7,341 bases of DNA, taken from the IMG/VR virus record IMGVR_UViG_2654587792_000035, positions 1-7,341 of that record. One strand, written 5' to 3'. The position numbers were made by a program, and so were the translations under genes. The DNA is from a virus. Lineage: Duplodnaviria; Heunggongvirae; Uroviricota; Caudoviricetes. Shown here piece after piece: positions 5,590 to 7,341 of the stretch. A model generated the notes under the pieces. That model saw nothing but the letters and a program-made list of their open reading frames with translations, did no database searches and was not told where the DNA came from. Each line of letters starts with the position of its first letter. Position 1 is the first letter of the stretch.

Positions 5590-5686
5590 GTGAAGGGTTA
5601 AAACGCAAAAATTTTAATTTACTGCTGTGAGATAAAGCCTATGACAGCGAAGCACATAAAAAAAATCACAATCGCACGCCCTTGAT

Positions 5687-5887
5687 TTGACGGAACACTG
5701 GTTAAGGGTGTCGATAAAAATCATCGACCGCAACGCCGGGGAAGGATATGCGAAAGCACATCCCGAACTGATTAGCGCATTCATGACAACGGCAGCTGCA
5801 AACTTTGCCACGCTGACAGAACGGGAGATTGCCGAAGCGGAACAGGTGACAACCATCAACGTTAAAACCGGAGAGCAGACAGCATGA
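5687..5887 (+). CDS. Hypothetical small protein upstream of and coupled to ssb; start codon uncertain (TTG 5687, GTG 5708, or ATG 5641 in another frame via the A8 tract)
   Basis: Its stop TGA (5885-5887) overlaps the ssb ATG (5884) in an ATGA arrangement. Composition is plausible (Ala/Glu/Thr-rich) but no in-frame ATG with an RBS exists. An A8 run at 5658-5665 separates an ATG-initiated 14-codon ORF (5641-5685) from this frame. Confidence 0.3.
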   Translation: MTEHWLRVSIKIIDRNAGEGYAKAHPELISAFMTTAAANFATLTEREIAEAEQVTTINVKTGEQTA

Positions 5888-6306
5888 CAGCACAGATAGC
5901 GGCTTACGGGCGGCTGGTGGCTGACCCGCAGTTAAAGACCACCAGCAAGGGTACACAAATGACGATGGCGAGTATGGCGGTCCCACTTCCGTGCAGCCAG
6001 GCAGATGACGGAACGGCGACGATGTGGTTATCCGTCCTGGCGTTTGGCAGACAGGCCGAAGCACTGGCAAAGCACCGCAAGGGTGAACTCCTGAGCGTGG
6101 CGGGTAACATGCAGGTGAGCCAGTGGACCGGACAGAACGGGGAGACGCGGCAGGGCTGGCAGGTTATCGCAGACAGCGTAATCAGTGCGAGAACGGCGCG
6201 ACCGGGCGGCAAAAAAGGCCAACAGGGGCAGGCTACTGATGCACTGAGCAGAGCAAAACAACAGGCGGGAAATGATGATCCGTACGGGGATAACATACCG
6301 TTTTAA
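5884..6306 (+). CDS. ssb: Single-stranded DNA-binding protein homologue (140 aa), OB-fold with acidic C-terminal tip
   Basis: GGAGAG RBS about 10 nt upstream. Product aligns by eye with E. coli SSB across the OB fold (G.L..DP ... W..V..FG..AE ... KG ... WT.Q.G..R) and ends with DDPYGDNIPF, matching the conserved SSB C-terminal D-(D/N)-IPF tip. The linker is much shorter than in host SSB. Confidence 0.8.
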   Translation: MTAQIAAYGRLVADPQLKTTSKGTQMTMASMAVPLPCSQADDGTATMWLSVLAFGRQAEALAKHRKGELLSVAGNMQVSQWTGQNGETRQGWQVIADSVISARTARPGGKKGQQGQATDALSRAKQQAGNDDPYGDNIPF

Positions 6307-6321
6307 GCAACGAGTAACAGA

Positions 6322-6345
6322 AGCCGGAGCAATCCGGCTTTTTTA
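6322..6345 (+). terminator. Rho-independent terminator ending the rep-ori-ssb transcription unit
   Basis: Stem AGCCGGA / TCCGGCT (6322-6328 and 6333-6339), 4-nt loop GCAA, followed by a T-run to 6344; it begins 16 nt after the ssb stop. Confidence 0.8.
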
Positions 6346-6571
6346 TGGGTCCTCCCGGTGTAGTGACCTGCCACGGGGCGGGAGCGGCGCGGAAAAAGGC
6401 TAGTTTTTGCATTTTCATTCGTCATCATCATCTTTCTATAATGTTGAATTTTAAGTGTTTTTATTTTTGGTATGTTAATTTTGCTTGTTTTGTGTTCAAC
6501 ATACAGCGCGTTTTTTGACCTTTTTTAAAAGATATTTGCAAGATGCATTTTTAAAACATTCTGGAGCGGGT
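6346..6571. other. Candidate packaging-signal (cos-like) / late regulatory region: GC-rich block (6346-6392) followed by about 180 bp of AT-rich DNA with repeated ATTTTTAAAA motifs, immediately upstream of the Nu1-like gene
   Basis: The GC-rich block contains ACGGGGCGGGAGCGGCGCGG (GGGCGG-type motif reminiscent of lambdoid cosN). The spacing to the Nu1-like start (about 185 bp) resembles the lambda cosN-cosB-Nu1 layout. TATAAT at 6437-6442 lacks a good -35; ATTTTTAAAA occurs twice (about 6520-6530 and 6546-6556). The assignment is inferential. Confidence 0.3.
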
Positions 6572-7057
6572 ATGGATCGGGAACTGAAAAATCTGATGCT
6601 GAACATTAACCAGCTGGCGGCGATAGCGGGAATATGTCGCCAGACTGCGGCGGCAAGGCTGAAAAATATCCAGCCAGCCGGAGGACATGACAAGCTGAAA
6701 CTCTATCGGGTGACTGACATTCTGACTTGTTTTCTTGATCTTCCCGTTCCGGCATCACTGGAAGAAATGGAGCCACACGACCGTAAGGCCTGGTATCAGT
6801 CCGAACGTGAGCGCCTCAAGTTCGAACAGGAAACGGCGCAACTCATACCCGCCGATGATGTGCGAAAAGAGATGGCTATATGGGGAGAAATCGTAAGCGA
6901 GGAACTGGAAAAACTCCCCAGTATTCTGGCACGTGATGTTGGGCTTAAACCGATGGCAGTAAACAGAGTGCAGTCAATTATTGACGATTTGTGTAATCAG
7001 ATTATCAGCCGGATGGTAAAAAATGACGTAGTGAATGAGGTCGCAAAACAGGCATGA
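6572..7057 (+). CDS. Nu1-like terminase-small-subunit-type winged-HTH protein (161 aa); candidate packaging-specificity / redirection factor
   Basis: ATG at 6572 with GGAG 5 nt upstream; the track ORF start at 6485 was rejected. N-terminus LNINQLAAIAGICRQTAAARLKNIQPAGGHDKLKLYRVTDIL aligns by eye with lambda Nu1 VNKKQLADIFGASIRTIQNWQEQGMPVLRGGGKGNEVLYDSAAVI. No large terminase gene follows within the window. Confidence 0.65.
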   Translation: MDRELKNLMLNINQLAAIAGICRQTAAARLKNIQPAGGHDKLKLYRVTDILTCFLDLPVPASLEEMEPHDRKAWYQSERERLKFEQETAQLIPADDVRKEMAIWGEIVSEELEKLPSILARDVGLKPMAVNRVQSIIDDLCNQIISRMVKNDVVNEVAKQA

Positions 7058-7341
7058 TAATGACCGAATCTGAAATACTGCGATTAATCCGCTGTGCTGG
7101 TGGAATTAGCCAGTTGGCTGACGAACAGGCCGCGCAGCCGGATACAGTCACCGCTGAAAATTACGCGCGTGTGGTGGCTGAGGTGATGCGCCGTGACGGT
7201 ATTGAGCTTAACGGCGTGGATATGCGCAACATACGAACCAGAGTCCTTGAGTTGCTGGCATACCGTCGCCGTTCTCAACAACGGAGGGAGAGCGCGAAAA
7301 ATACTTATCAGTGGAAGAAGCCGGAATGGTTGCGGCGGTAA
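7054..7341 (+). CDS. Hypothetical protein (95 aa), translationally coupled to the Nu1-like gene; stop codon is the last triplet of the window
   Basis: ATGA overlap with the upstream stop (7054-7057). Product is Arg-rich at the C-terminus with no recognisable motif. An alternative start at the ATG at 7060 is possible. Confidence 0.55.
   Translation: MIMTESEILRLIRCAGGISQLADEQAAQPDTVTAENYARVVAEVMRRDGIELNGVDMRNIRTRVLELLAYRRRSQQRRESAKNTYQWKKPEWLRR

Follow-up and report, generated by a model that had tools for sequence, protein, structure and literature searches.

Two ways of steering a helper terminase are known for phage-inducible chromosomal islands (PICIs): a small terminase subunit (TerS) of the island's own in staphylococcal islands of the pac type, and the Rpp protein in Escherichia coli islands of the cos type. 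TerS homologues have already been noted in Gram-negative PICIs (PMC6092414), and SatelliteFinder uses them as a core marker (10.1101/2022.09.14.508007). In the literature that we searched, TerS of Gram-negative PICIs figures as a catalogue marker, and its mode of action is not demonstrated. Here we analyze such a gene in a 7,341-bp stretch of IMG/VR record IMGVR_UViG_2654587792_000035 (below, the window), which belongs to a PICI-type E. coli satellite of ~8 kb.

The original prediction, made from the sequence alone, had taken this gene for the DNA-recognition subunit of a packaging hijack. This reading fits the results best: terS is an orphan gene that stands behind a genuine cos site in a PICI. 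We lean toward the interpretation that region 6347-7341 is a PICI packaging module, whose TerS would bind the satellite's own cosB and recruit the gpA-type large terminase subunit (TerL) of a helper phage. The satellite gene proved to be a mosaic, and its DNA-recognition part is of a type that is rare among E. coli prophages.

The small terminase and its cos site

The terS open reading frame (ORF) is intact, with GGAG 6 nt before its ATG, and the same start is annotated by RefSeq in a 98.3%-identical island (L001 15272-15757, 'DUF1441 family protein'). Its product matches Pfam family DUF1441 (PF07278) with E = 2.2e-35 and 122.1 bits (cut-off 35.1), amino acids (aa) 10-148 covering profile positions 1-145 of 147, and phrog_141, 'terminase small subunit', with 5.3e-57. 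In tblastn comparisons with phage small terminases, identity was 62-71% for mEp460, phi458, and PhiR55_1, and 44-54% for mEp043, mEp213, and Gifsy-2. In these phage homologues, the gene lies directly before a gpA-type TerL gene, which is followed by portal and protease-capsid genes, and a scan of genome contigs for the family found five loci, all of prophage type. Every invariant residue of a 55-sequence family alignment is kept, including those of the C-terminal half (P116, L119, R121, D122, Q134, and D138). The 161-aa protein is, by sequence, a full-length DUF1441 small terminase and, by context, an orphan. No biochemical study of any DUF1441 protein was found in the literature, where the name was met in phage genome descriptions.

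An AlphaFold2 (AF2) model of TerS (pLDDT 79.6) comprises a winged helix-turn-helix (wHTH) at aa 1-55, with the topology strand-helix-helix-hairpin-helix over aa 9-55, and helices at 68-89, 94-113, 115-123, and 127-160. The gene had been predicted to encode a wHTH protein of the lambda Nu1 type; the small-terminase homology and the modelled wHTH agree with part of this view, but the family is DUF1441 and not Phage_Nu1. No match to Phage_Nu1 (PF07471) was obtained at E <= 0.1, with lambda Nu1 itself scoring 2.5e-100 and the TerS of another PICI (L007) 2.7e-24 against the same library. With hhalign, TerS aa 9-55 align in register with Nu1 aa 2-50 at a probability of 23%, and alignment to a Nu1-type PICI TerS is weak and confined to the central region (22% over 68 residues). 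Among PDB chains, neither the Rpp-TerS entry 6HN7 nor Nu1 chains were retrieved by phmmer (E <= 1) or by the 55-sequence profile (E <= 10), whereas in a control search of the same set lambda Nu1 retrieved the TerS chain of 6HN7; RppC is presumably present in this PDB copy as well (6HLK and the partner chain of 6HN7). Thus, the likeness to Nu1 is distant at best.

No genes for TerL, portal, or capsid proteins were found in the window, as the original prediction had stated. The same island occurs in two complete E. coli chromosomes, with 98.3% and 97.6% identity over window positions 5300-7341. In both, it is flanked by yljB/cspD on one side and by clpS on the other, with nothing phage-like beyond, and no TerL or structural genes precede clpS, which starts ~640 bp past the end of the window. 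Thus, the absence of these genes is real and not an artefact of where the window was cut. A terminase and structural module immediately downstream would have made the locus an ordinary prophage; clpS is found there instead.

Similarity to phage cos DNA sets in abruptly at 6347, right after the hairpin that closes the SSB gene (Table 1). It starts with the heptamer GGGTCCT, presumably the counterpart of lambda cosQ (bp 48473-48479), which is placed 29 nt before the predicted left end here and 30 nt before the left end in lambda. The 46-bp motif GGGTCCT-N19-ACGGGGCGG-N6-CGCGG at 6347-6392 occurs once in the window, against 0.00 occurrences expected from 200 shuffles. Aligned without gaps to lambda ACG/GGGCGGCGACCT/CGCGG, the cosN sequence is identical at 15 of 20 positions, with ACG/GGGCGG and CGCGG in exact register; the nick positions at the predicted 12-nt cohesive end are proposed by analogy with lambda. 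With the DNA upstream of terS in three mEp460/phi458-type lambdoid (pro)phages, among them PhiR55_1 and phi458, block 6344-6405 shares 57, 56, and 54 of 62 positions, and it shares 42 of 62 with the cosQ-cosN junction of lambda (joined ends). As judged from these alignments, 6347-6392 is a genuine cos core, collinear with lambda cosQ and cosN, and the cos-like region proposed originally is a real one.

In other phage and PICI copies, cosN is identical or differs by a single base, G or T at overhang position 12 (6387). Most satellite copies and the matching prophages have G; T occurs in the common phage types as well as in islands L001, L021, and L022. The variants do not split cleanly between satellites and phages. 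A literature search for the overhang sequence returned nothing relevant.

The spacer between cosN and terS also resembles that of lambda in extent. The terS ATG lies 196 bp from the first base of the predicted overhang and 184 bp from the last, compared with 190 bp between cosN and terS in lambda, and GC content falls to 0.305 over 6401-6600; the original description of a GGGCGG block ~185 bp before the gene, with AT-rich DNA after it, was accurate. The match to lambdoid cos regions sought by the original prediction was found for cosN but not for the R sites: neither convincing R3/R2/R1-like repeats nor a layout of the IHF type was detected in cosB, which has only short two-copy repeats, such as ATGTTGAA and TTCAACAT 46 nt apart, that are not conserved between cosB types.

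Two further elements of the spacer were observed. A trinucleotide-repeat tract lies ~45-60 bp past the start of the cohesive end in each cos type: TCATCATCATC in the window (6420-6433), CACCACCAC in the phi458 type, GGCGGCGGC in cos1, and GGTGGTGGTGG in lambda-type PICIs. Given its location near the place of R3 in lambda, it is a candidate recognition element. Just before the ribosome-binding site of terS, at 6522-6559, the pattern AAAG-N-T-N-TT-N-GCA-N-GATGCAT-N-TTTAAA, with a palindrome around GATGCAT, is present in all cosB types of phages and satellites and could be a regulatory or protein-binding site.

Mosaic structure of TerS and its distribution

Comparison of nine loci from satellites with nine from phages or prophages revealed two parts of the module with different histories: (i) a cassette of cosQ, cosN, cosB, and the first ~96 codons of terS that is shared with phages, and (ii) a C-terminal half of TerS found in satellites only. 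Over 6350-6860, 25-30 of every 30 nt (83-100%) are identical to prophages L023-L025, whose genes include those for gpA TerL, portal, and capsid; beyond 6860, this number drops to 10-19 of 30. The window-type and prophage TerS proteins are 100% identical over aa 1-95. The cassette exists in several types, each with one cosB per wHTH, and the same types are found in satellites and phages. In an alignment of 13 loci, three cosB types are strictly paired with three wHTH types, the cosB of the window's type being longer by 10 bp (196 versus 186 bp). No PICI or phage copy differs from the others over residues 66-95, and both flanks of this segment are variable.

The C-terminal halves fall into two classes. 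One, ending in ISRMVKNDVVNEVAKQA, is present in every satellite copy regardless of the cassette, of which at least four types were seen; the other, with an acidic tail ending in EAGADDEEELQQEE, is present in every phage copy. All nine loci with the tail KNDVVNEVAKQA lack TerL and have a next ORF of 95-96 aa, whereas the tail GADDEEELQQEE is followed in nine of nine loci by TerL of 700 aa (467 aa in one). Accordingly placed between cos and gpA TerL in all nine phage and prophage homologues, the DUF1441 gene is not so placed in the window or in the eight other PICI loci. The net charge of the tail is +1 in satellite TerS versus -7 in phage TerS. The satellite protein (161 aa versus 163-164 aa in phages) can be aligned to about aa 145, and the last ~16 residues are unrelated.

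No copy of the satellite C-terminal half was found among 50,697 phage records, the best match being 60% identical with the tail unaligned, and a search of a large protein collection with this half alone returned nine fragments and no intermediate relatives. Between the satellite and phage versions, nonsynonymous divergence (dN) is ~0.30 and synonymous divergence (dS) is saturated; thus, the split is old and the half has been kept by purifying selection. Across the loci compared (9 of 9), it appears as an anciently diverged, satellite-only lineage. TerS had been proposed to be a DNA-recognition subunit encoded by the satellite; what is specific to satellites is the C-terminal half, and rare prophages have the very same recognition half.

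The frequency of the module was estimated in 5,426 complete E. coli genomes by three BLAST queries with different thresholds, so that the counts are approximate. The satellite module of cos, terS, and the 93-aa gene that follows it (6340-7341, at least 80% covered) is present in 187 genomes (~3%). The variable part of the cassette (6400-6860) reaches 90% identity or more in ~189 genomes and only ~75% in ~794, and ~187 of the ~189 window-type copies are PICI modules. The prophage version of the window's cassette with its TerL junction, full length at 95% identity or more, was found in two genomes, whereas the terS-terL junction of the same family (at least 80% covered) is present in 1,360 genomes (~25%), including ST131 strains, 1,356 of them at ~89% identity. 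These counts indicate that the window's DNA-recognition type is carried almost wholly by satellites and that likely helpers would mostly be of other types. This near-exclusive carriage supports the original idea of a packaging site owned by the satellite. The module is retained in at least four PICI backbones, three of which have lost the adjacent capsid gene or retain it in truncated form.

Gene content and origin of the island

All genes listed for the window are on the plus strand (Table 1). Following the PICI definition of PMC6092414 and SatelliteFinder (10.1101/2022.09.14.508007), we found the characteristic features of a Gram-negative PICI: co-oriented int, alpA-type regulator, primase-replicase, and TerS genes, no TerL, tail, or lysis genes, and a fixed chromosomal site. 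A satellite with its own integrase and replication gene had been anticipated originally, and the Pfam matches of the integrase, AlpA, D5-type primase, and SSB genes bear this out. The complete genomes, in which clpS follows the window, rule out a capsid-forming PICI or a prophage of which the island would be the left half. A stretch with GC content of 0.33 was observed at 5301-5600, after the primase gene and before the small ORF that comes next, which is the usual site of a PICI replication origin.

Table 1. Genes and packaging elements of the 7,341-bp window
Feature	Position	Strand	Evidence and remarks
Tyrosine integrase	1-1239	+	Pfam Phage_integrase
AlpA-type regulator	1572-1868	+	Pfam Phage_AlpA
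DUF4222 protein		+	
D5-type primase/helicase	3521-5353	+	Pfam D5_N/Pox_D5/DUF5906
SSB (single-stranded DNA-binding protein)	5884-6306	+	Pfam SSB
Terminator-like hairpin and U-run after the SSB gene, left edge of the packaging module	6322-6346	+	RNA fold -17.6 kcal/mol, z = -3.9 versus shuffles
cosQ-like heptamer GGGTCCT	6347-6353	+	No variation among the phage and PICI copies examined
Helper-shared cassette: cosQ, cosN, cosB, terS codons 1 to ~96	6347-6860	+	Identity to prophages
cosN, ACG/GGGCGGGAGCGG/CGCGG	6373-6392	none	Gap-free alignment to lambda; predicted 12-nt 5' cohesive end 6376-6387 (contains GGGCGG)
cosB-like AT-rich spacer	6388-6571	+	Conserved start CGCGGAAAAAGGCTAGTTTTTG; variable part ~6408-6520 changes along with the TerS N-terminal domain
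terS, 161 aa	6572-7057	+	Pfam DUF1441, phrog_141
Satellite-specific C-terminal half of TerS, aa 96-161, without the phage acidic tail	6857-7057	+	
93-aa gene (95 aa if the start is 7054); its stop ends on the last base of the window	7060-7341	+	phrog_1561

The last gene closes the island in both complete chromosomes. Its conserved start, ATG 7060, lies 2 nt past the terS stop and is more likely, on conservation, to be the true one than 7054. The 93-aa protein matches phrog_1561 (function not assigned) with 1.4e-51; no match was found in Pfam, NCBIfam, PDB, or the literature. Its AF2 model has three helices (pLDDT 63). The protein has a basic tail, and 875 protein clusters of a large collection match it at E <= 0.001. 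The idea that it mimics the N terminus of TerL was rejected, since BLASTP gave no similarity. Copies with 78-98% identity end PICIs that carry capsid, decoration-protein, and Nu1-type TerS genes (L007 9002-9283 and L009 9002-9283), and in the capsid-forming PICI L008 a copy (8959-9240) is the last gene, after the island's own TerL. Because it closes PICIs with other packaging set-ups, the gene is not a TerS-specific partner. The coupled gene suspected originally to be such a partner is thus a real and closely coupled ORF without being a dedicated one; to judge from its copies, it is a conserved end-of-island gene tied to packaging modules generally.

Sibling islands suggest how the window's island arose. 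They contain a gene for a fusion of ClpP protease, scaffold, and capsid (637-638 aa) between SSB and terS, flanked by two direct cos copies (6251 and 8775 in L017; 6236 and 8772 in L026, which occupies the same clpS site). The island of ETEC1716 (L002) is an intermediate form, with cos copies at 15047 and 15681, 634 bp apart, around a remnant of the fusion gene. Window positions 6334-6418 match both cos copies, the left flank being that of cos1 and the right flank that of cos2; thus, the single cos of the window results from a deletion between cos1 and cos2 with loss of the capsid gene. Either homologous recombination or, as we infer, packaging from cos2 to the next cos1 could have been the route. 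The capsid gene and the second cos are dispensable in this PICI family, which nevertheless retains cos, terS, and the 93-aa gene. The 234-aa protein P0005, in which TerS from about residue 30 onward is fused to an N-terminal portion of the ClpP-like head protease, looks like the product of another deletion in the capsid-terS interval in a sibling island.

Proposed packaging mechanism and comparison with known systems

The proposed packaging pathway would consist of three steps: (i) once a helper of the DUF1441-TerS/gpA family has induced the satellite, satellite TerS would bind the adjacent cosB via its N-terminal wHTH, (ii) the bound TerS would recruit helper TerL, and (iii) TerL would nick the cosN common to satellite and helper, and satellite concatemers would be packaged into helper capsids. 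A TerS of its own would make packaging of the satellite independent of the specificity of helper TerS, since the window's cosB/wHTH type is rare in the resident prophages of this family. The satellite TerS may also compete with the helper for TerL, and its C-terminal half probably either keeps it from mixing with helper TerS or alters the engagement of TerL. The computed homologies, cos identity, genomic context, mosaic, and counts are the basis from which we infer DNA binding, TerL recruitment, nicks, and helper interference.

Several observations weigh against this pathway. By analogy with lambda Nu1, the C-terminal part of TerS is expected to oligomerize and to bind TerL; this is the divergent part, ~60% identical to that of phages and devoid of the acidic tail, so that recruitment of TerL is not assured. 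In the sibling PICIs L020-22, the wHTH/cosB type does not differ from the common phage type; thus, a DNA specificity private to the satellite does not hold for the whole family. The route of terS expression is a further point: a terminator-like hairpin precedes the module, and a promoter scan of the plus strand from this terminator to terS, including 6522-6559, detected no sigma-70-like promoter. The population counts, finally, are approximate owing to the differing thresholds.

The divergent C-terminal half would also fit a mixed complex similar to that of Rpp, in which satellite and helper TerS would co-assemble via aa 66-95 and helper TerS would supply TerL, since the non-acidic half of the satellite protein would be unable to bind it; such a complex would favour the satellite cosB and depress helper packaging. 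There is a precedent in Rpp, a TerS-like DNA-binding domain without a TerL-binding region that acts only with helper TerS (PMC6739421, PMC9026076), and the invariance of aa 66-95 between variable flanks, as well as the satellite-specific half with its altered tail charge, would agree with it. However, the window's TerS is full length and keeps all family-invariant residues of its C-terminal half, and it has no sequence similarity to the RppC and TerS chains in PDB, findings that speak against the Rpp-type protein entertained in the original prediction. Moreover, with one and the same wHTH/cosB type in satellite and helper, the situation of L020-22, their DNAs could not be told apart by a hetero-complex. 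We regard the mixed complex as possible but less probable than recruitment of helper TerL by satellite TerS itself.

Two other explanations are less likely still. As in cos-type SaPIbov5, cos alone might be sufficient, terS being a functionless passenger captured with phage cos DNA; some prophages have the same cosQ, cosN, and cosB, so that the island could be packaged unaided by a helper of matching type, and recombination with phages across the region is evidently frequent. This explanation is quite improbable, as the terS ORF is intact in 187 complete genomes and persists in backbones that lost the adjacent capsid gene, its C-terminal half is old, under purifying selection, and never found in phages, and matching prophages are confined to two complete genomes. 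Still more remote is the option that the locus is an ordinary defective prophage fragment or that the gene encodes a generic regulator of the MerR or Xre type. The only solved structures matched by Foldseek are indeed the MerR-like wHTH regulators CbpM, BldC, and RacA, though weakly (E above 0.2, with no Nu1 or RppC chain among the top 50), and the RefSeq name says merely 'DUF1441 family protein'. The context largely refutes this option: the family is invariably located between cos and gpA TerL in phages, and the island has a PICI gene set with chromosomal genes on both sides. A confident hit to an unrelated regulator family, which the original prediction had named as contrary evidence, did not appear; no regulator family in Pfam or NCBIfam is significant, and the confident hits are DUF1441 and phrog_141.

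Beyond the direct recruitment of helper TerL favoured here, a more speculative idea, which we consider doubtful, is that the satellite-only half is the effector domain of a third hijack strategy, distinct from SaPI TerS and Rpp. If this were true, satellites would borrow circulating helper cos and DNA-binding cassettes by recombination and keep a private back end, which would insulate satellite TerS from helper TerS or re-programme or block helper TerL. On this view, satellites and phages would exchange the cos-wHTH cassette as a mobile module of specificity while contending over packaging identity in an arms race. Since the protein divides so cleanly, it offers an experimental handle on two questions: which region of a small terminase of the cos type determines DNA specificity and which one engages the motor, and how packaging specificity is traded between satellites and helpers or made private by them.

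Compared with the cos-Nu1-A region of lambda, the module has the same order of cosQ, cosN, cosB, and terS, identical cosN flanks, 7 of 12 identical overhang bases, a similar cosN-terS distance (196 versus 190 bp), and an N-terminal wHTH; it differs by the lack of a Phage_Nu1 hit, of recognizable R3/R2/R1 sites, and of TerL after terS. PICIs with a Nu1-type TerS (L007 and L009, with capsid, decoration-protein, TerS, and 93-aa genes) are similar in architecture, in the terminal gene, and in having cos directly before terS. In contrast to the window, the TerS of L007 (8386-8928) is a mosaic in reverse: the DNA-binding part at its N terminus diverges, with Phage_Nu1 matching aa 33-148 only, and its C-terminal part is ~50% identical to lambda Nu1. 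Two cos sites were observed in L009, one like those of DUF1441 phages (ACGGGGCGGGAGG...) at 5770 after SSB and one of the lambda type (GGGCGGCGACCT) at 8211 before the Nu1-type terS, a situation reminiscent of EcCICFT073 with its unexplained 'two different cos sites'.

A further comparison is the pac mimicry of PLE, a Vibrio satellite with the packaging specifiers GpsA and GpsB. According to Boyd & Seed (2024, PMC11417361), it likewise combines a copy of a helper packaging signal with proteins that direct helper TerL to satellite DNA; packaging is of the pac type, and a TerL inhibitor is encoded too (PMC11417361). The PLE proteins are unrelated to those of the window. TerS of the pac-type Staphylococcus aureus pathogenicity islands (SaPIs) SaPI1 and SaPIbov1 is, like the window's protein, a full-length homologue of helper TerS expected to pair with helper TerL and to pick out satellite DNA (PMC6739421, PMC6092414). 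Those islands package by headful in a Gram-positive host and carry a separate inhibitor, Ppi, alongside, whereas the window's module is of the cos type, has no identified Ppi-like gene, and combines a recognition half shared with phages with a satellite-specific C-terminal half.

The closest layout is that of the Rpp/EcCICFT073-type PICIs (Fillol-Salom 2019, PMC6739421; Murialdo & Feiss 2022, PMC9026076). These are also Gram-negative cos-type islands with lambda-like cosQ and cosN, followed ~100-200 bp later by a gene with a TerS-like wHTH, whose product is thought to derive from helper TerS and is proposed to redirect helper terminase; the same origin and role are supposed for the window's protein. 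Rpp is of Nu1-family origin, 135-154 aa long, without a TerL-binding end, and its cosB is unlike that of any helper. The window's TerS, in contrast, is a full-length DUF1441 protein, and rare prophages (2 complete genomes) have a nearly identical N-terminal half and cosB, whereas identity to the common types over 6400-6860 is ~75% (~794 genomes). We found no description of a DUF1441-type satellite TerS, its mosaic, or a near-private cosB type in the literature searched, the coverage of which was incomplete. By these analogies, the module would have the layout of the Rpp and cos modules and the logic of SaPI TerS, its new elements being the mosaic DUF1441 satellite TerS and the near-private cosB type.

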